Shown: positions 924 to 56,517 of the stretch, piece by piece
Layout: every line of letters starts with the position of its first letter
Numbering within the stretch: the first letter of the stretch is position 1
Assembly: GCA_009783265.1 (NCBI GenBank)
Contig: WRHM01000002.1
Location: forward strand, 94,564 to 158,563
DNA length: 64,000 bases
Origin: Oscillospiraceae bacterium
Lineage (GTDB): Bacteria > Bacillota > Clostridia > Oscillospirales > WRJC01
Reading direction: 5' to 3'
Made by a program: the position numbers and the translations under genes
Notes under the pieces: model-generated
Database searches by the model: none
What the model was told of the DNA's origin: nothing
Seen by the model: the letters and a program-made list of their open reading frames with translations, nothing else

Positions 924-3404
924 ATGTCAAAAATGATAGAAAAAATAGAAAAATTATCTTTGCCTGTTGTCGTAACAAGGGGATTGATAGTTTTTCCGGA
1001 AATAAATATAGGTTTTGAGATGAACCGTCCAAAATCTCAGAAAGCCGTCGAATATGCGGAAAAAAACGACAGGCTTATATTTGTCGTTTCGCAAATTAAA
1101 ATCGAAACAGAAGACCCGATGCCAAATGAAATATATAAAGTCGGCACGATTGCCAAAATAAAGCAGTCAGTTAAACTTGCGGATAATAATTACAGGCTTA
1201 TAATCGAAGGTATCGCAAGAGCTGAAATCTTATCGTTTGATTACTCAAAAGATTATTTATCTTGCGAATTATTAAAAAAAGAAATATTTTTACAAAATAA
1301 CGGCGGGATAAAAGGCGAAGCCGCAATTTCAGAAACTATGAAAGTTTTCGAGGGATACAGCCGTTTTATCCCGAAACTTTCAAATGAAATAATGATGGTT
1401 TTGTATTCTATTAAAAATCCGGGAGTTTTAGCCGATTTTATCGCTTCTAATATATATTTCAGGATAGAAAAAAAACAGGACCTGCTCGAAGAATTTGACC
1501 CGTATAAAAGACTCGAAAAATTATCTGTCATACTTGAAAAAGAAATCGAAATGCTTGAAATAGAAGAGCAGATACATAAAAGAGTACGCGGACAAATGGA
1601 TAAAAATCAACGAGATTATTTTTTGCGCGAACAATTAAAGGCTTTAAAAAAAGAACTTGGCGAAGAAGAAAATAACGACGATGAAATGTCAGAATATGCA
1701 AATAAATTGGAAAATTTGAAACAGAATCTATCAGAAGAAGTATACGCAAAATTAAAAAAAGAAGTAATTAAACTTCAAAAACAACCGGCAAATTCTCCTG
1801 AAAGCACAGTAATTAAAAATTATCTTGATATATGTTTTGAAATCCCGTGGAATAAAAAAACAAAGGATTTTATAGATATAAACGCCGCTGAAAAAATATT
1901 AAACGACGACCATGATGGATTATTTAAAGTAAAAGAAAGAATACTCGAATTTATCGCGGTAAAACAAATAAAACCGGAATTAAAAGGGCAGATTTTATGT
2001 TTTGTAGGTCCTCCCGGGGTAGGAAAAACTTCGGTAGCTTCGTCGATAGCAAAAGCGATCGGCAGAAAATATGTGAGGGTTTCGCTCGGCGGAATCCGTG
2101 ATGAAGCCGATATACGGGGGCACAGAAAAACTTATATAGGTTCTATGCCGGGAAGAGTTATAAACGCAATAAAAGAAGCCGGGAGTTTAAATCCGTTATT
2201 ATTATTCGACGAAGTGGATAAACTCACGAAAGATTCACACGGAGACCCTGCCTCGGCTCTTCTGGAAGTTTTGGATTCGGAACAAAACAAATCGTTCCGG
2301 GATCATTTTATAGAATTACCTGTTGATTTATCTGACTGTATGTTTATTGCGACGGCAAATACTACGGATACTATTCCGAGAGCTTTGCTCGACAGAATGG
2401 AAATAATACATATAACGAGTTACACGAGAAACGAAAAGCATAAAATCGCTAAAAATCATCTTGTTTACAAACAAGCAAAAAAACACGGGCTAAATAAAAG
2501 CAAGTTTAAAATCACGGACAATGCTTTATATGAAATGATTGATTATTACACGAGAGAAGCCGGGGTAAGAAATCTTGAGCGTGAAATCGCGAATGTATGC
2601 AGAAAATCTGTAAAAAAGATGTTGAAAAAAAATAAAAAATCTATAACTGTTAATATGTCTGTTTTGGCTGAACTTCTCGGACACCGTAAATTCAAAGACG
2701 ATTCTTATTCAAAAGAAGAAGAAGTCGGTGTAGTAAACGGATTAGCATGGACTTCTATGGGCGGGGAAATATTGCAGGTCGAAGTTGCTATATCTGAAGG
2801 AACTGGGAAAATAGAATTGACGGGGTCGCTTGGCGACGTCATGAAAGAATCGGCAAGGACTGCCATATCTTTTATCAGGACGATAACGAAAAAATATAAT
2901 ATAAATCCTGATTTTTATAAAAACAAAGATATACATATACATTTTCCTGAGGGAGCGATACCAAAGGACGGCCCATCGGCTGGAATAACTGTTGCCACAG
3001 CGATATTTTCGCAGCTCACGGGTTATCCCGTAAAACGCGAAATAGCGATGACAGGCGAAATAACGTTACGGGGAAAAGTATTGCCAATAGGGGGATTGAA
3101 AGAAAAAACGGTCGCCGCATACAGAGCTAAAATAAAAAACGTGATAATTCCCGATGATAATATTCCGGATTTGGAAGATATAGACGATATTGTCAGGGCA
3201 AATTTGAATTTTATACCGGTAAAAAATGCAGAGCAGGTTTTTGAAAATGCGATAGTATTTCCGAAAATTGTTATAGAGTGTACGGAAATTTGCGAGAATA
3301 ATTCAAAAAAAGATTTATATTCGACTATTATGCCTCCGGTTATACCTGAAAATATAAATAATACAGATAATACAATTCTGCAGGGGGTATATAATATAAA
3401 ATGA
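924..3404 (+). CDS. lon: ATP-dependent protease La (LonA).
   Basis: N-terminal LON domain. AAA+ Walker [10 protein letters not shown], Walker B LFDEVDK. C-terminal protease domain with catalytic-Ser motif DGPSAGIT. About 826 aa including a roughly 50-aa C-terminal tail. Confidence 0.93.
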
Positions 3405-3787
3405 TAAACGAAGAATTTGAACAAGTAAAAGAATTTCATAAAATGTTTAATCACCGGGTAAAAGAAACGCCGTTTTTATTGCAGGAAGATGAAGTAAAAA
3501 ACAGGGTTGAATTCATGCGCGAGGAAATACAGGAGTTTATAGATTCAAAAAATATATATGATCAGGCTGACGCTATGATTGATTTGATATATTTCGCATT
3601 GGGAACTCTTGTTGAAATGGGCGTAAAACCGAAAGAAATTTTTGATATAGTGCATGAGGCGAACATGACAAAAATATGGAGCGACGGGAAAGTGCATTAT
3701 CGCGAGGACAACGGAAAAGTAATAAAACCGCCGGAATGGGAAGACCCGTACGTGAAAATAAAAAAAGCGATAGATAGAATGGAATAA
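3401..3787 (+). CDS. MazG-like nucleotide pyrophosphohydrolase family protein (all-alpha NTP-PPase).
   Basis: 128 aa. Contains the EExxE...ExxD-type helical acidic motif (REEIQEFID ... DQADAMIDLIYFALG). Its start overlaps the lon stop (ATGA), implying translational coupling. Confidence 0.5.
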   Translation: MINEEFEQVKEFHKMFNHRVKETPFLLQEDEVKNRVEFMREEIQEFIDSKNIYDQADAMIDLIYFALGTLVEMGVKPKEIFDIVHEANMTKIWSDGKVHYREDNGKVIKPPEWEDPYVKIKKAIDRME

Positions 3788-5785: not shown

Positions 5786-6784
5786 ATGAATGATTTGAAT
5801 GAATTAATTACTATTAATAAATTAGAACAAGCGTTATATATGTTGCATGAAGTTAAAGAGATCGATGAAATAAAACAAATTATCGACCAGTCTGAAGCTT
5901 TAAGAAATTATGCAAAAGCGCAGCAACTATCGACGGAAATTCAACAGGATATTACAGAATATAATTTATATGCCATACGTCAGATGGGTATTATTAGCAA
6001 AGGTTTGGTGAAATTCAAAAATCAATATGCTAGTCCGGAGTTTGGACAAGCAAAAACTAAAGTTTTGTCAGATGCCGGTATAGACCGCAGAAGGGCGGCA
6101 GAAGCAGAAAAATTTGCTTATATCAGTGAAAAAGAATTTAGTGATATTATAGCGGCAAAAAGAAAAAATGATATTTTATCAAAATATGAAGTGGCAAGAG
6201 AAATAAAAAATAAAATTATCAGAGAACAGCGTAATAATATAATAACGACTATTCCGGAAGAATTAACCAGTACATATAATGTAATTTTAGCCGACCCTCC
6301 GTGGCAATATGATTTTTCAGCAAGCGAAAACAGGTCACCTGAAAATTATTATCCGACAATGACGACAGAAGAATTATATAATTTATATATTCCGGCAGAA
6401 GATAACAGTATTTTGTTTTTATGGTCTCCGGCTTCGCAACTTCAAAACGCATTACAAATGATGAATTCATGGGGTTTTATTTATAAAACATCTGCAGTAT
6501 GGGACAAAGAAATAATTGGCATGGGGTATTATTTTAGAAACAGGCATGAAATAATTTTAATAGGCGTTAAAGGCGAATTTAGGCCTCCATTGCCAGAAAA
6601 CCGCCCTTCTTCTGTATATCAGGAAAAACGAACAAAATATACTAAAAAGCCTGATTATTATTATGATATAATCGAAAAAATGTACCCGAACGGCAAATAT
6701 TTAGAATTATTTGCGCGGCAGCAATATAACGATAAATGGACTGCTTGGGGCAATCAAATCGAAATAAATAAAGATAGGGATTAA
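5786..6784 (+). CDS. MT-A70 family DNA N6-adenine methyltransferase with an N-terminal extension of about 150 aa.
   Basis: Catalytic DPPW motif (ILADPPWQYDF) and the conserved LFLWSP / GFxYKTxxVWDK blocks of MT-A70/Dam-like phage-type methyltransferases. No adjacent restriction endonuclease. Confidence 0.75.
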   Translation: MNDLNELITINKLEQALYMLHEVKEIDEIKQIIDQSEALRNYAKAQQLSTEIQQDITEYNLYAIRQMGIISKGLVKFKNQYASPEFGQAKTKVLSDAGIDRRRAAEAEKFAYISEKEFSDIIAAKRKNDILSKYEVAREIKNKIIREQRNNIITTIPEELTSTYNVILADPPWQYDFSASENRSPENYYPTMTTEELYNLYIPAEDNSILFLWSPASQLQNALQMMNSWGFIYKTSAVWDKEIIGMGYYFRNRHEIILIGVKGEFRPPLPENRPSSVYQEKRTKYTKKPDYYYDIIEKMYPNGKYLELFARQQYNDKWTAWGNQIEINKDRD

Positions 6785-6799
6785 GGCAGGAAATAAATT

Positions 6800-7933
6800 A
6801 TGATAATCAAAAGAATTGAAAAAATTCAAAAATATTTGAAAGAAAAAAACGAAAATTCGGCATTTATAATAACTTCTGAATATAACAGAAGATATATGAC
6901 AAATATATCGACTTCAAGCGGGTATATTATAATAACTCCGGAAAATAAATATTTTTTTACGGATTCAAGATATATAGAATTCGCTAAAAAAAGTCTTGGC
7001 GATATATATACTGTTAATTTATATCCCAAAAAACATGAAACCGAAAATTATTATAAAGAATTATTAAAAAAAGATAAAATAAAAAATATATTGTTTGAAG
7101 AAAATTATATATTTTTTAAAACCAAAAAACATTTTGATGAATTATTTAAAAGTTTTAATCTCGTTGAAAGCGATAAGTTAATAGAAAAAATGCGAGAGAT
7201 AAAAGATTCAACAGAAATCGAAAATATTACGAAAGCGCAAAATATAACAGATAACGCGTTTACGCATATTTTAAAAATTATTAATGCTGATTTATATAAT
7301 TTAACAGAAAAAGATATTGCGCTTGAACTTGAATATTATATGAAAAAAAACGGCGCGGATAATATAGCGTTTGATATTATCGCGGTTTCGGGTAAAAAAT
7401 CTTCTTATCCTCACGGCCAGCCTGAAAATATAAAATTATCGAAAGGTTTTCTGACGATAGATTTCGGCGCGCTATATAACGGTTATTGTTCGGATATGAC
7501 AAGAACGATATGTATTGGTAAACCGGATAAAAAAATGATTGATATTTATAATCTTGTCAAATTTGCGCAAATTGCGGCTTTAGAAAAAATAAAAGCGGAT
7601 ATTGAAGGTATTGAAGTTGATAAAATTTCGAGGGATATAATCAGAAATGCGGGATATGGTGAAAATTACGGGCATGGATTAGGCCATTCAGTAGGGCTTG
7701 AAATACATGAAACGCCAAATTTCCCGATAACTGAAATTGAAAGTGAAAAAGAAAAAAATGGTAAAATCAAAGAAAAAGAAAAAATTATATTAGCTGAAAA
7801 TATGGTCATAACGGTAGAACCGGGAATATATATAGAAAATGAATTCGGAGTAAGAATAGAAGATTTAGTGGTGATAAAACAAAATGGATATATAAATTTG
7901 ACAAAAAGCAACAAAGATTTGATTATAATATAA
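6800..7933 (+). CDS. M24 family Xaa-Pro aminopeptidase/dipeptidase.
   Basis: Pita-bread fold metal-binding signature HGLGHSVGLEIHE and VITVEPGIY. N-terminal creatinase-like domain. 377 aa. Confidence 0.8.
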   Translation: MIIKRIEKIQKYLKEKNENSAFIITSEYNRRYMTNISTSSGYIIITPENKYFFTDSRYIEFAKKSLGDIYTVNLYPKKHETENYYKELLKKDKIKNILFEENYIFFKTKKHFDELFKSFNLVESDKLIEKMREIKDSTEIENITKAQNITDNAFTHILKIINADLYNLTEKDIALELEYYMKKNGADNIAFDIIAVSGKKSSYPHGQPENIKLSKGFLTIDFGALYNGYCSDMTRTICIGKPDKKMIDIYNLVKFAQIAALEKIKADIEGIEVDKISRDIIRNAGYGENYGHGLGHSVGLEIHETPNFPITEIESEKEKNGKIKEKEKIILAENMVITVEPGIYIENEFGVRIEDLVVIKQNGYINLTKSNKDLIII

Positions 7934-8060
7934 GTTTTATTTATGCCTGATATAATAAAAAAATATATTAAAACCTATTGCATTTTTATGCAATAGGATG
8001 TATAATAATACAAAACTATAGTTTTTATAATTTTATATATTTGGAGGTAATAAAAATTCT

Positions 8061-30061: not shown

Positions 30062-30134
30062 AAAAATAAGCGGATTACGGGACTCGAACCCGCCACCTCA
30101 ACCTTGGGAAGGTCGCGCTCTACCGGATGAGCTA
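30062..30134 (-). tRNA. tRNA-Gly (anticodon CCC).
   Basis: The reverse complement folds as a canonical cloverleaf. Acceptor stem GCGGATT/AATCCGC, D-stem GCTC/GAGC, anticodon stem CGACC/GGTTG, anticodon loop TTCCCAA, T-loop TTCGAGT, discriminator U. CCA is not encoded. Confidence 0.9.
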
Positions 30135-30233
30135 AATCCGCATTAATACAATATATACCGGGCGACCTTATTGGGCCGCCCTTATATATTACTATAAATT
30201 TATTTTTTTGTCAATATTTTTTTATAAAAATTA

Positions 30234-54036: not shown

Positions 54037-54738
54037 ATGCTTGAACTTGTTATTTTTGATATGGACGGCGTATTGGTCGATTCAGAGCCCGCGATTACGC
54101 AGGCTTCGATTGAATCGTTAAAAGAAACTTTTGGAATTACGCCAAAACATTCGGATTTCAAAGAATTCACAGGAATGGGCGACGATAAATTTATTCAGGG
54201 TGTCGCTGAAAAATACGGTAAATCATATAACGAAAATTTAAAATTAAGGGCTTATGAAATATATACGGCGAAAAAAAACAGGGTAAAAGTATTTTCGCGG
54301 GCAAAAAAATTAATACATAATTTATATAATATAAATTTAAAATGCGCCGTCGCTTCCGCTTCAGATTTAGTGAAAGTTAAAGTTAATATCAAAAAAATAA
54401 AACTCGGCAAATCAATTAAAATAATTACAACGGAAAATAATATAGAACAAAAAGTAAACCGTCCATTATATATCATAACCGGAACAGACGTGAAAAATAA
54501 AAAACCCGACCCGGAAATATTTTTAAAAGCGGCTGAAACTGCGGGAATATTTCCTGAAAATACAATTGTAATCGAGGACGCAATCAGCGGGGTTAAAGCC
54601 GCCAAAGCGGCAGGTATGACCTGTATCGCCGTAACTACGTCGTTTAATAAAAAAGTTTTGTTTGAAGCCGGAGCTGATTATGTCGTAAATAAATTGTACG
54701 ACGCGTTTGATATAGTAAGAAATATTAAAAACACATAA
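54037..54738 (+). CDS. HAD family hydrolase (beta-phosphoglucomutase/phosphatase-like).
   Basis: Motif I DMDGVL, motif II (VASASD) and the C-terminal VIEDAISGVKAAKAAGM. 233 aa. Confidence 0.75.
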   Translation: MLELVIFDMDGVLVDSEPAITQASIESLKETFGITPKHSDFKEFTGMGDDKFIQGVAEKYGKSYNENLKLRAYEIYTAKKNRVKVFSRAKKLIHNLYNINLKCAVASASDLVKVKVNIKKIKLGKSIKIITTENNIEQKVNRPLYIITGTDVKNKKPDPEIFLKAAETAGIFPENTIVIEDAISGVKAAKAAGMTCIAVTTSFNKKVLFEAGADYVVNKLYDAFDIVRNIKNT

Positions 54739-54775
54739 AAAAGCCCTCTTTAGCGCGAAAGCGCGTAAAGGGGGT
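54736..54775 (-). terminator. Composite hairpin. An outer stem CCCTCTTT/AAAGGGGG encloses a GCGC-GAAA-GCGC tetraloop hairpin, with an A-run upstream. On the minus strand this reads as an intrinsic terminator.
   Basis: Seen in the sequence. GC-rich in an AT-rich background. Confidence 0.45.
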
Positions 54776-54846
54776 GGCACGCAGTGCCGGGGGATTCCGG
54801 ATTTGATGTTGTTCGGGGGAGAATCACCCGCCGCCTGCGGACGGCA

Positions 54847-54872
54847 CCCCCTTCTGAGAAGGGGGCTTTTTT
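54847..54872 (+). terminator. Intrinsic terminator CCCCCTTC-tga-GAAGGGGG followed by TTTTTT.
   Basis: Perfect 8-bp GC stem plus a U-run on the plus strand. It lies 20 nt from the stop of the convergent minus-strand sigma gene. Confidence 0.55.
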
Positions 54873-54891
54873 GTGTAAATTTTTATATAAA

Positions 54892-56517
54892 TTATTCCGG
54901 CAACGTATCGCAAAACATTATCGTGTTGACCGAATGCTTTTGATTTTCCGTGAGTGGTTTGAGCGTGCCGTTTGCGAGGAGAATTTCAAGAACATACGCT
55001 ACCATATTTTGATCTGACAGACAATTAGTACACCATGCGCGGTATAAATCATGCATGTGCGCAGGATATTGCGATTTTTCGAGATTATATATTTCTTTGT
55101 CAAATTCTTCGCCGATTAATTTAAGTTCTTCTGTCATCCCGGGCAACAAATTCTTAAAATCATTTTCAGAATCTTTGGAAATTATCATGTTGACATATTC
55201 CGAATCGTTTTTTTGTATTAAATAGCCTTTGTCAAACAACCGCTTAAATTTGTCGGCATATTCGGGTATTTTTGTGATTTTTCCGGCGATATATTCGTAA
55301 AGATATTCGTAATCCTCGGATTTATTTTCAATATAAGTATTCGGCCTGCTGTCATAATATGAATTAAGCTGCCATGAATTATATATATGTTCGCTGCTGC
55401 CTCTTGTCATATTATTTGGAACATTATATTTTTCTTCGTTATAATTTACTTTTATATCTTTTTTTACATATCCCAAAGCAATATATTCTCCGCCGTCCTT
55501 GCGTTTTACATTATAACGCGACAATGTTCCCCAATCAAACGGCGCTCTTAACATATATCTGCAAGAATATCCGATTATTGACCACATTAAAAAATTAAAA
55601 TCGTTTTCCGGAGTGTATATTTTCATTGATTTGTAATTTTTCATCGTATCAAATAACAACGGAATATATTTTTCGCAAATGACTTTTGCGTATTTTAAAA
55701 ATAGTTTATGTATTTCTTCCATCACTTCTTTTGACGGTTCTCTTATAAAAATATTTGTCTGGTATTTTCCGCCCGCAATTTTATCCAAAAAGCTGTAATC
55801 TTCAAGATACGCGACTTCGTCCTCGATAAAAGCCGCAGGCACTCCGAGTTCCTCAGCGATTTCTGTTATAGTTTTAGGTTCGTAATATGCGGCATACACT
55901 ACGTTTTGCGAGATAAGTTTTGATAAATAATACGATGTGTTTTTATTTTCGGGGCCGGGATTTCCGCTCATTCCAAAGTCTATTTTAACCGGATTCATTC
56001 CAAGATTTATTCTTTCACTCATTTTATTAATATCCTCCAATTTGTTTTTAAGTTGATTTCTGGCGTCGTGAAGATGCCATTTTACTGTTCCAAGCGGAAT
56101 ATTTAACCGTTCTGCTATTTCATATAACTTTAATTTTTGAAAATAGTGCATGACTATAATTTCCCGCTGGATTTTACCGAGATAGGAAATCTCTTTACGC
56201 AAACGGATATAATCTTCGTTTTTCTCAAAATCAATCGTAAAATCATTTTCGCACGGTATATTCACTTCGTCAAGTGAGATATATCTGCCTTTTATTTTTT
56301 CATTTACGAATCTTGCGTAGACATTACTTGCGACCCGATATATATAACCGTTGATGTTATACACTTCGCCGGCTTTTAATAACGAAGTGTAAACGTCAAA
56401 AGTTATCCTCGAAGCGAGTTCTTCAGCTTTGTCCGTGTTTATCGTTTTTGAGAGAGCGAACCCGAATATTTTTTGCATATATCCGGCGATGATTTCATCG
56501 ACATATTTTTTATCCAT
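54892..56517 (-). CDS. Sigma-70 family (ECF-like) sigma factor with a C-terminal extension of about 350 aa and unknown function.
   Basis: Region 2 DKAEELASRITFDVYTSLLKAGEVYNINGYIYRVASNVYARFVNE. Region 4 QREIIVMHYFQKLKLYEIAERLNIPLGTVKWHLHDARNQLK. The long C-terminal domain is soluble. Confidence 0.7.
   Translation of the reverse strand: MDKKYVDEIIAGYMQKIFGFALSKTINTDKAEELASRITFDVYTSLLKAGEVYNINGYIYRVASNVYARFVNEKIKGRYISLDEVNIPCENDFTIDFEKNEDYIRLRKEISYLGKIQREIIVMHYFQKLKLYEIAERLNIPLGTVKWHLHDARNQLKNKLEDINKMSERINLGMNPVKIDFGMSGNPGPENKNTSYYLSKLISQNVVYAAYYEPKTITEIAEELGVPAAFIEDEVAYLEDYSFLDKIAGGKYQTNIFIREPSKEVMEEIHKLFLKYAKVICEKYIPLLFDTMKNYKSMKIYTPENDFNFLMWSIIGYSCRYMLRAPFDWGTLSRYNVKRKDGGEYIALGYVKKDIKVNYNEEKYNVPNNMTRGSSEHIYNSWQLNSYYDSRPNTYIENKSEDYEYLYEYIAGKITKIPEYADKFKRLFDKGYLIQKNDSEYVNMIISKDSENDFKNLLPGMTEELKLIGEEFDKEIYNLEKSQYPAHMHDLYRAWCTNCLSDQNMVAYVLEILLANGTLKPLTENQKHSVNTIMFCDTLPE

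Follow-up and report, generated by a model that had tools for sequence, protein, structure and literature searches.

What is the GC-rich, highly structured element that lies between the convergent HAD hydrolase and sigma-70-like genes of an AT-rich clostridial genome? The stretch analyzed here (the window) comprises 64,000 nucleotides of Oscillospiraceae bacterium contig WRHM01000002.1 (assembly GCA_009783265.1), and the element occupies positions 54743-54866 of it, or 54737-54872 if its flanking A and T runs are included. A sequence-only reading had described a structured region at 54736-54875, and had seen in it two crossed terminators, a separate small RNA (sRNA) or an sRNA derived from a 3′ untranslated region (UTR). 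The best explanation (probability about 0.8) is that the element is a non-autonomous dispersed DNA repeat in the form of an inverted doublet, with a putative local role as a pair of crossed intrinsic terminators.

The element consists of two inverted, tail-to-tail copies of a module of approximately 50 nt. In each module, a pyrimidine arm and a purine arm together form hairpin 1; next come a single T and a second hairpin of variable sequence (HP2), and last a G/T tail in mirror symmetry with the purine arm. The two modules, U1 and U2, and their surroundings are arranged as follows.

54737-54742, no strand: A6 run, overlapping the HAD stop codon TAA; U-tract of the minus-strand terminator.
54743-54796, plus strand: module U1, with pyrimidine arm 54743-54752, GC hairpin insert in loop 1 54753-54765, purine arm 54767-54774 and T 54775.
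54776-54796, plus strand: distal part of U1, with HP2 GGCAC-GCA-GTGCC 54776-54788 and mirror (third-strand) tail GGGGGATT 54789-54796.
54797-54821, minus strand: central spacer, reading CTCCCCCGAACAACATCAAATCCGG and homologous to the oriented central loop of the family, CTCCCCGTACGCAACATCAAAT (compared with 44 tail-to-tail doublets).
54822-54866, minus strand: module U2, with pyrimidine arm 54866-54858, loop 54857-54855, purine arm 54854-54847 and T 54846.
54845-54822, minus strand: distal part of U2, with HP2 GCCGTC-CGCA-GGCGGC 54845-54830 and tail GGGTGATT 54829-54822.
54867-54872, plus strand: T6 run, abutting U2; U-tract of the plus-strand terminator.

On the plus strand U1 reads GCCCTCTTTA (GC hairpin insert) TAAAGGGGG T GGCACGCAGTGCC GGGGGATT and folds into two hairpins (-30.4 kcal/mol). 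U2 reads GCCCCCTTC TCA GAAGGGGG T GCCGTCCGCAGGCGGC GGGTGATT on the minus strand, from 54866 to 54822. An nhmmer profile of 114 modules from outside the window matches the window at two places only, U2 (54869-54821, minus strand, E 4e-12) and U1 (54741-54797, plus strand, E 4e-7).

The structural description in the sequence-only reading is borne out: all hairpins that it named are present, the element is the top GC peak of the window, and its fold is far more stable than expected (z about -5.4). The hairpins are a composite stem at 54743-54775 with a GAAA loop, GGCAC-gca-GTGCC at 54776-54788 and CCGG-gggatt-CCGG at 54787-54800, accompanied by G5/C5 tracts. The GC content of the stretch 54726-54891 peaks at 0.69 in 80-nt windows and at 0.65 in 100-nt windows, against a mean for the 64 kb of 0.324, a background somewhat higher than the roughly 28% first given. 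For a 145-nt stretch, the folding energy is -71.4 kcal/mol on the plus strand (-51.3 for shuffles, z -5.35) and -62.6 kcal/mol on the minus strand (z -5.60), and on neither strand was any of 200 shuffles as stable.

That the element belongs to a dispersed repeat family is close to certain. The first additional copies surfaced in loci that had been fetched, via paralogs of the sigma-like gene, for unrelated reasons. Among the matches listed, the 25-nt core of U2, GGGTGCCGTCCGCAGNCGGCGGGTG, occurs in at least 116 stretches, all of them in 13 Oscillospiraceae metagenome-assembled genomes (MAGs), which their isolate codes suggest to be of termite-gut origin. A single MAG contributes 59 of the listed stretches, and many of the stretches are no more than 80 nt away from the end of a contig. 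The window element itself is present as an identical copy in three other assemblies of the same organism. In a census of 215 modules, 96 are single, while 48 tail-to-tail pairs, five head-to-head pairs and nine tandem pairs were counted; modules also occur nested, and in either orientation relative to genes. The tail-to-tail spacer is 37 nt in 36 of the 48 pairs (31 nt in the window doublet), and such doublets combine different HP2 types. Only 22 of the 215 modules (10%) fall inside open reading frames (ORFs) of at least 150 aa, which cover 79.5% of bases (p 8e-106). Modules start with (C)CTTGCCCTC and end with GGGTG(A/T)TTT.

Pairing is retained in 98.3% of cells across the family, with five pairs altered on both sides (0/500 shuffles). 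When HP2 inserts were selected by their anchors, with no pairing imposed, 76% of the distinct inserts contain a stem of at least 4 bp, compared with 18.5% of shuffles, and the stems are diverse in sequence (GCCGTC/GACGGC, GGCAC/GTGCC, GTCAC/GTGAC, GGCTC/GAGCC, CAGTCGC/GCGGCTG). The first of these resembles the Neisseria DNA-uptake sequence; the likeness was taken as coincidence, because HP2 varies freely in sequence. Among 32 near-identical doublets of one genome, variation is 0.066 in unpaired columns and 0.018 in paired columns (p 1e-7), and is highest in the central loop. The repeats constitute an intergenic family of many copies that is present in 13 or more termite-gut Oscillospiraceae species, and its copies keep both hairpins and the mirror tail through compensatory changes.

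Several features of individual copies were noted in passing. The central 12 nt or so of the doublet (..CCCC GTACGCAACATC AAAT..; for example L008 6055-6070, the L numbers denoting retrieved loci, and 54800-54815 in the window) are hypervariable, mostly through transitions, and exist as two block variants, GTAC and TCGC; the other 120 nt are near-identical in approximately 30 copies of one genome. In L012 (1245-1385) a module lies within a 116-nt tandem repeat, and in L114 (EPI_MAG_00258) within a longer GC-rich unit, of which four copies 1.2-1.5 kb apart recur approximately every 1.3 kb. Single modules of the Pal332 MAGs are embedded in tandem heptamers, (GTAGAGA/GTAGGGA)n, on both sides (L026 ~3380-3520, L033 ~7890-8000, L084 ~2990-3110, L099 ~5890-6010). 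Doublets that form the core of longer palindromic elements occur in L102 (1610-1850 and 4050-4280), where two such copies flank the rpsB-tsf operon, and in many other WRMA01 loci. No counterpart of the element was found by BLAST in plasmid or phage collections, and the one viral contig that a pattern scan picked out, 11,306 nt in length, is probably the same as WRMA01000066.

Chance resemblance between two ordinary terminators, for which it can be said that both ends of the element score as terminators, is refuted by these data: HP2, the tails and the central spacer, all lying between the terminator stems, are homologous to more than 100 copies elsewhere. The sequence-only reading had foreseen that an element without conservation would be simply two terminators. 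Conservation is in fact strong, but what is conserved is a dispersed repeat and not an RNA specific to this locus.

An sRNA selected for its RNA fold, whether free-standing or derived from a 3′ UTR, would account for the very stable fold on both strands, for the compensatory changes in the hairpins, for a terminator at the 3′ end and for the probable transcription across the element from both genes. This proposal finds no support, because the element has no Rfam match, is a modular repeat that occurs in any orientation, carries a mirror tail and is conserved as a dispersed sequence. At gathering thresholds, the only Rfam match in the whole window is a tRNA, and the element region is without a match. 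At E<=10, the best score in a 301-nt region around the element is 18.3 bits, against a threshold of 49.5 bits, and covers the terminator alone; the covariance search that had been put forward as a check thus places no family in the element at either level. The tRNA (30069-30141, minus strand, 62.3 bits) is also a local GC peak. A consensus scan gave no promoter-like site in the element or immediately before it. All arrangements and orientations of modules are represented, and a copy at the orthologous site of another genome (L125) is inverted. G.T wobbles fall on each inverted module's own sense strand, and one transcript cannot hold both. Finally, the tail covaries as a mirror image of the purine arm, which RNA pairing leaves unexplained. 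An sRNA is accordingly very unlikely.

The mirror tail is the feature that assigns the family to a known class of repeats. It is complementary to nothing in the module and follows the purine arm in these combinations.

Purine arm AAAGAGGG: tail GGGTGTTT or GGGTGATT.
Purine arm AAAGGGGG: tail GGGGGATT or GGGGGTTT.
Purine arm GAAGGGGG: tail GGGGGTTG.
Purine arm AAGGGGGG: tail GGGGGGAT.
Purine arm GAGGAGGG: tail GGGTGGAG.

In 41 of 44 distinct combinations, the A/G position of the arm agrees with the T/G position of its tail (Fisher p 9e-9): GAGGG arms accompany GGGTG tails in 26, GGGGG arms accompany GGGGG tails in 15, and three are discordant. The mean number of allowed triplets (G.G, A.A, T.A) is 7.75 out of 8, compared with 6.83 when tails are permuted (0/2000); in the window it is 8/8 for U1, a perfect candidate, and 6/8 for U2, which is degraded. 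Mirror covariation therefore points to DNA as the level of constraint, or to recognition of mirror symmetry by a protein, and not to an RNA fold. Judging from these sequence patterns, the constraint probably acts at the DNA level and is of the triplex type. Purine-motif triplexes are reported not to form in RNA (PMC4666352).

The element is a variant of the BoxC/PIT/TMECO repeat that has a hairpin in loop 2 and an AT-rich Clostridia host; BoxC repeats, known from E. coli and many other bacteria, were later renamed PIT (potential intrastrand triplex) and TMECO. The layout is the same, with a pyrimidine arm, a purine arm and a mirror third block: CCCTCTCCC TGT GGGAGAGGG TTA GGGTGAGGG in E. coli corresponds to GCCCTCTTT..AAAGAGGG, then T and HP2, then GGGTGTTT in the termite-gut family. 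TMECO is present in 23 copies in E. coli MG1655, all intergenic, and forms five inverted doublets, each of two sub-types; it adopts an intrastrand triplex in vitro and is linked with local genomic variability, and the study reported no mobility genes near the motifs (Holder et al. 2015, PMC4666352). The family described here is likewise multi-copy, overwhelmingly intergenic and tied to local genomic variability, and its inverted doublets also join two sub-types, with two HP2 types in place of the E. coli types A and B. The classes differ in their loops: loop 2 consists here of a T and a 13-26-nt hairpin, as opposed to 1-6 nt in the known repeats, and loop 1 of U1 is 15 nt long. The termite arms are also richer in A/T, and the A6/T6 flanks of the window copy make canonical terminators, whereas PIT elements reportedly showed no terminator activity. 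Published triplex searches would have missed these modules, because they limited loops to 1-6 nt (ITxF) or 0-10 nt (Hoyne et al. 2000, as cited in PMC4666352), limits of 6 and 10 nt that the 13-26-nt hairpin exceeds.

The terminators that the window doublet appears to provide are the following.

54847-54865, plus strand: hairpin of an intrinsic terminator for the HAD gene, followed by T6 at 54867-54872 (consensus scan; local fold -14.3 kcal/mol).
54737-54775, minus strand: intrinsic terminator for the sigma-like gene, with a scan match at 54762-54743 followed by U6; this is the U1 hairpin read antisense (local fold -15.9 kcal/mol).

A GC-rich stem-loop followed by a U-tract is thus found downstream of a same-strand gene on both strands. 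The genes concerned are the HAD hydrolase gene on the left (54037-54738, plus strand, stop codon TAA at 54736-54738) and, converging on it from the right, the gene of a sigma-70-like 541-aa protein (54892-56517, minus strand). In agreement with the sequence-only reading, the scan places each terminator on the far side of the gene that it would serve, and convergent transcripts would overlap across the element. The crossing would be a geometric consequence of setting a tail-to-tail doublet between an A run and a T run. Each convergent transcript would pass the first module in sense and halt at the outer hairpin of the second module and its U6. GC-rich stems with U-tracts on both strands are also a feature of bidirectional terminators between convergent genes; the window pair differs in being separate, crossed and 100 nt apart, and in being made of the outer hairpins of a repeat doublet. 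Long T runs are absent from most family copies. We predict, with somewhat better than even confidence, that the doublet supplies the terminators of both genes. The ORF at 54784-55017, earlier dismissed as an artefact, is a mechanical 77-aa ORF with a GTG start; the dismissal is reasonable, because its start lies within the repeat and its course is antisense to the sigma gene, over the 3′ end of the latter.

When ORFs of at least 110 aa were clustered over approximately 0.9 Mb around the 215 modules, one recurrent small protein emerged, which matches Pfam PF04480 (DUF559; E 1e-26 to 1e-30); no repeated transposase was found in the same clustering. The DUF559 gene lies between two inverted modules in eight termite-gut loci and has partial or one-sided flanks in two more. 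In L030, L022 and L071, the gene encodes 114-123 aa and the modules face it with their heads, the hairpin-1 ends lying within approximately 10-45 nt of the start and stop codons; in L035 the module tails face the gene, and in L015, where the locus is cut, only the downstream module is visible. A homology search with the protein returned 662 relatives, of which the top 120 are 62-100% identical and mostly encoded on contigs of 0.5-2 kb, as expected because the gene is boxed in by repeats. Seven contexts chosen by protein homology alone form an independent sample. Five are canonical cassettes (L203, L204, L211, L212, L213), in genomes of 43-58% GC, and L207 is a degenerate case. The seventh, L210, encodes a 60%-identical protein flanked by a variant module, CTCCCTC..GAGGGAG, then GTCAGCGAAGCTGAC, then TGAGGGAG. 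Residues D50, E61, D63, H67, D76 and R79 are kept in 12 DUF559 proteins, whose nearest relative among solved structures is 3HRL, an entry deposited under the name 'endonuclease-like protein'. In related genomes, modules therefore bracket genes for small DUF559 (Vsr-fold) nucleases with intact catalytic residues.

The bracketed gene bears on two further explanations. A REP/REPIN element moved by a RAYT (Y1 HUH) transposase would likewise be a short, GC-rich, intergenic palindrome, occurring singly, as inverted doublets and in mosaic clusters, with a small, single-copy nuclease-type gene bracketed by two inverted repeats; repeats and protein co-vary in both systems, as the variant module beside the 60%-identical L210 protein illustrates. 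These metagenomes do contain palindromes with a GTAG head, which belong to another family. REPs are, however, defined by an unpaired GTAG/CGTC tag at one end of a 20-40-nt palindrome (PMC3733652). The termite module consists of two hairpins and a mirror tail, it has no such tag, and its sole CGTC is paired within HP2. The associated protein has a PD-(D/E)XK/Vsr fold (DUF559) and is not an HUH Y1 transposase. A phmmer search with an IS200 TnpA sequence against ORFs of at least 70 aa from the loci gave no match, which is a weak test. We consider a REP/REPIN element improbable.

The second explanation is a conventional miniature inverted-repeat transposable element (MITE), that is, an internally deleted derivative of an insertion sequence that a DDE transposase moves in trans. 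It would fit the terminal inverted symmetry and the assembly breaks at copies. It would also fit MAG Th196P3bin6, where the 125-nt doublet is the core of 195-235-nt palindromes with three classes of AT-rich inverted outer arms. The inner spacer of head-to-head pairs also matches the 5′ leader of the DUF559 cassette; this sharing would be expected of deletion derivatives of the cassette, and it also fits unoccupied target sites. Opposed to this are the lack of a repeated transposase in the clustering described above, the lack of a visible target-site duplication and the frequency of single modules, which equals that of pairs. DUF559 is encoded by the only cassette whose ends are those of the modules. 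A conventional MITE is accordingly quite unlikely.

The association of triplex-type repeats with DUF559 genes extends beyond the termite-gut clade. In E. coli, the DUF559 gene ycjD has a TMECO/BoxC copy 170 nt downstream, and its stop codon falls within a TMECO-like hairpin.

ycjD-TMECO locus: L215 3200-3420, equivalent to approximately 1351200-1351420 of E. coli K-12 NC_000913.3.

All 5426 complete E. coli genomes contain this 49-nt repeat, with a median of 17 places in each. A tblastn search of plasmid records with the termite protein found DUF559 genes in ten other taxa, and nearly all of these are flanked, by eye, by units of a hairpin and a mirror tail; the flanking geometry is exactly head-to-head in two Deinococcus species. 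A simple, objective triplex-motif finder (8-nt arms, one mismatch tolerated, loop 2 no longer than 30 nt) was applied to 16 DUF559 genes from Firmicutes, Deinococcota, Cyanobacteria and alpha-, beta- and gamma-Proteobacteria. It gave 36 matches within 250 nt of 14 of the 16 genes, compared with 0.02 in shuffles. Where local density was taken into account (50 kb), the sites compare with expectation as follows.

D. proteolyticus: 2 of 5 motif sites flank the DUF559 gene (expected 0.08).
D. aetherius: 2 of 3 motif sites flank the DUF559 gene (expected 0.05).
Sphingomonas: 2 of 6 motif sites flank the DUF559 gene (expected 0.12).
N. gonorrhoeae: one array terminates beside the DUF559 gene (expected 0.35).

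In N. gonorrhoeae (L229, 23965-24661 and 32088-34325), arrays of triplex-type units CCCTCTCCCTGTGGGAGAGAGCTAGAGAGAGGGC have spacings that alternate between ~100 and ~180 nt, and the DUF559 gene beside which one array ends corresponds to PDB 3HRL. The two Deinococcus species carry the repeat-bracketed DUF559 gene at the same place in the hpa (4-hydroxyphenylacetate) cluster (L226 38454-38876, L227 24780-25207). Independently, DUF559 domain genes are 14-fold enriched among genes predicted to be 'inversion targets' on account of flanking inverted repeats (PMC9881135). A link between DUF559 and triplex-type repeats was not found described in the accessible text of open-access literature that mentions DUF559, subscription literature lying outside this scope.

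A functional partnership of repeats and nuclease is suggested by analogy with REP/RAYT systems or homing endonucleases, and we rate its chances as about even. The DUF559 nuclease would spread or maintain the family by acting on folded DNA, in one of two modes: it might mobilize modules as RAYT does REP, or it might be a homing-type selfish gene that targets module pairs. The Vsr fold includes the homing endonuclease I-Bth0305I of the EDxHD family (PMC3239194). Like Vsr-fold homing endonucleases, DUF559 proteins keep Vsr-type acidic and His catalytic residues, and their genes are small, free-standing and found in many unrelated contexts. DUF559 genes differ in lying outside introns and inteins, bracketed by structured repeats, and the proteins (109-123 aa) are without the N-terminal NUMOD/HTH DNA-binding region described for I-Bth0305I. 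More broadly, and with slightly less assurance, we tentatively propose that, throughout Bacteria, small nucleases of the DUF559 type (Vsr-fold, PD-(D/E)XK) have triplex-type repeats, both BoxC/PIT/TMECO and the hairpin-bearing variant, as their cognate DNA. The nuclease would recognize the folded or mirror-symmetric module and drive its spread, its maintenance or the reported local instability.

Turnover of the repeat can be followed at the site between the HAD and sigma genes in orthologous HAD loci, which were taken from JGI metagenomes. Synteny of the sigma-gene paralogs was useless for this purpose, as these lie in unrelated contexts. In L125 (HAD 78% identical), the HAD and sigma genes are separated by a doublet that is reversed in orientation and differs in its HP2 types. 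L124 (HAD 78%) has an unrelated GTAG-headed palindrome at this site. L132 (HAD 80%) is without repeat and sigma gene, and the HAD stop codon is followed by ACATAAAAAA|TATTTGAC, leading into the promoter of the next gene. The A6 run thus belongs to the target and not to the repeat, since ACATAAAAAA is also present at this empty site; donation of the HAD stop codon by the repeat was rejected on the same ground.

Relative to L132 (3690-3800), the window has a surplus of approximately 1.85 kb (54743 to ~56592) that holds the repeat and the whole sigma gene and is bounded on both sides by a direct repeat, ACA(T)AAAAAA. The 541-aa sigma-like family is large and occurs in unrelated contexts, including Treponema and Cloacimonetes MAGs; the C-terminal ~380 aa of the protein have no Pfam match. 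The sigma-like gene may be mobile or often lost. The GTAG-headed GC-rich palindromes (L124 3704-3770; also L144, L012, L085, L098 and L016), for example GTAGGGGGCGACC...GGTCGCCCC, are a second, unrelated family of the same metagenomes and have a REP-like look.

Several observations weigh against a mobile repeat with terminator activity and a dedicated nuclease. E. coli PIT/TMECO elements are reported to have no terminator or promoter activity and to form no stable triplex in vivo (PMC4666352). The association with DUF559 is positional only, and the nuclease gene could equally home into pre-existing repeat pairs. Within the 64-kb window there is one doublet only and no DUF559 gene, and neither a target-site duplication nor a clean filled/empty pair was obtained for the repeat alone. 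The taxonomic range, drawn from the matches listed by a core scan of one genome per GTDB species, is a lower bound. The strict triplex finder gives no call on the window copy, because the U2 tail agrees with its purine arm at just 6 of 8 positions and loop 1 of U1 holds a 13-nt hairpin insert; the window copy may be a decaying relic.

For annotation, GC-rich structured islands of this kind in AT-rich genomes are to be treated as DNA repeats and not as RNA genes; such islands interrupt assemblies, give rise to spurious ORFs and are able to provide terminators. Knowledge of BoxC/PIT elements goes back to the 1990s, with no function, origin or associated enzyme known for them. If the link to DUF559 is functional, these elements would gain a partner enzyme and the widespread DUF559 a role, and if the wider proposal is true, it would amount to a second system of structured repeat plus dedicated nuclease, parallel to REP/RAYT. 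The link is unusually clear in the termite-gut genomes, where the repeats stand out sharply against an AT-rich background and DUF559 lies exactly between two of them in several species. It recurs in E. coli (ycjD) and in five other lineages, and the question thereby becomes addressable in a model organism.

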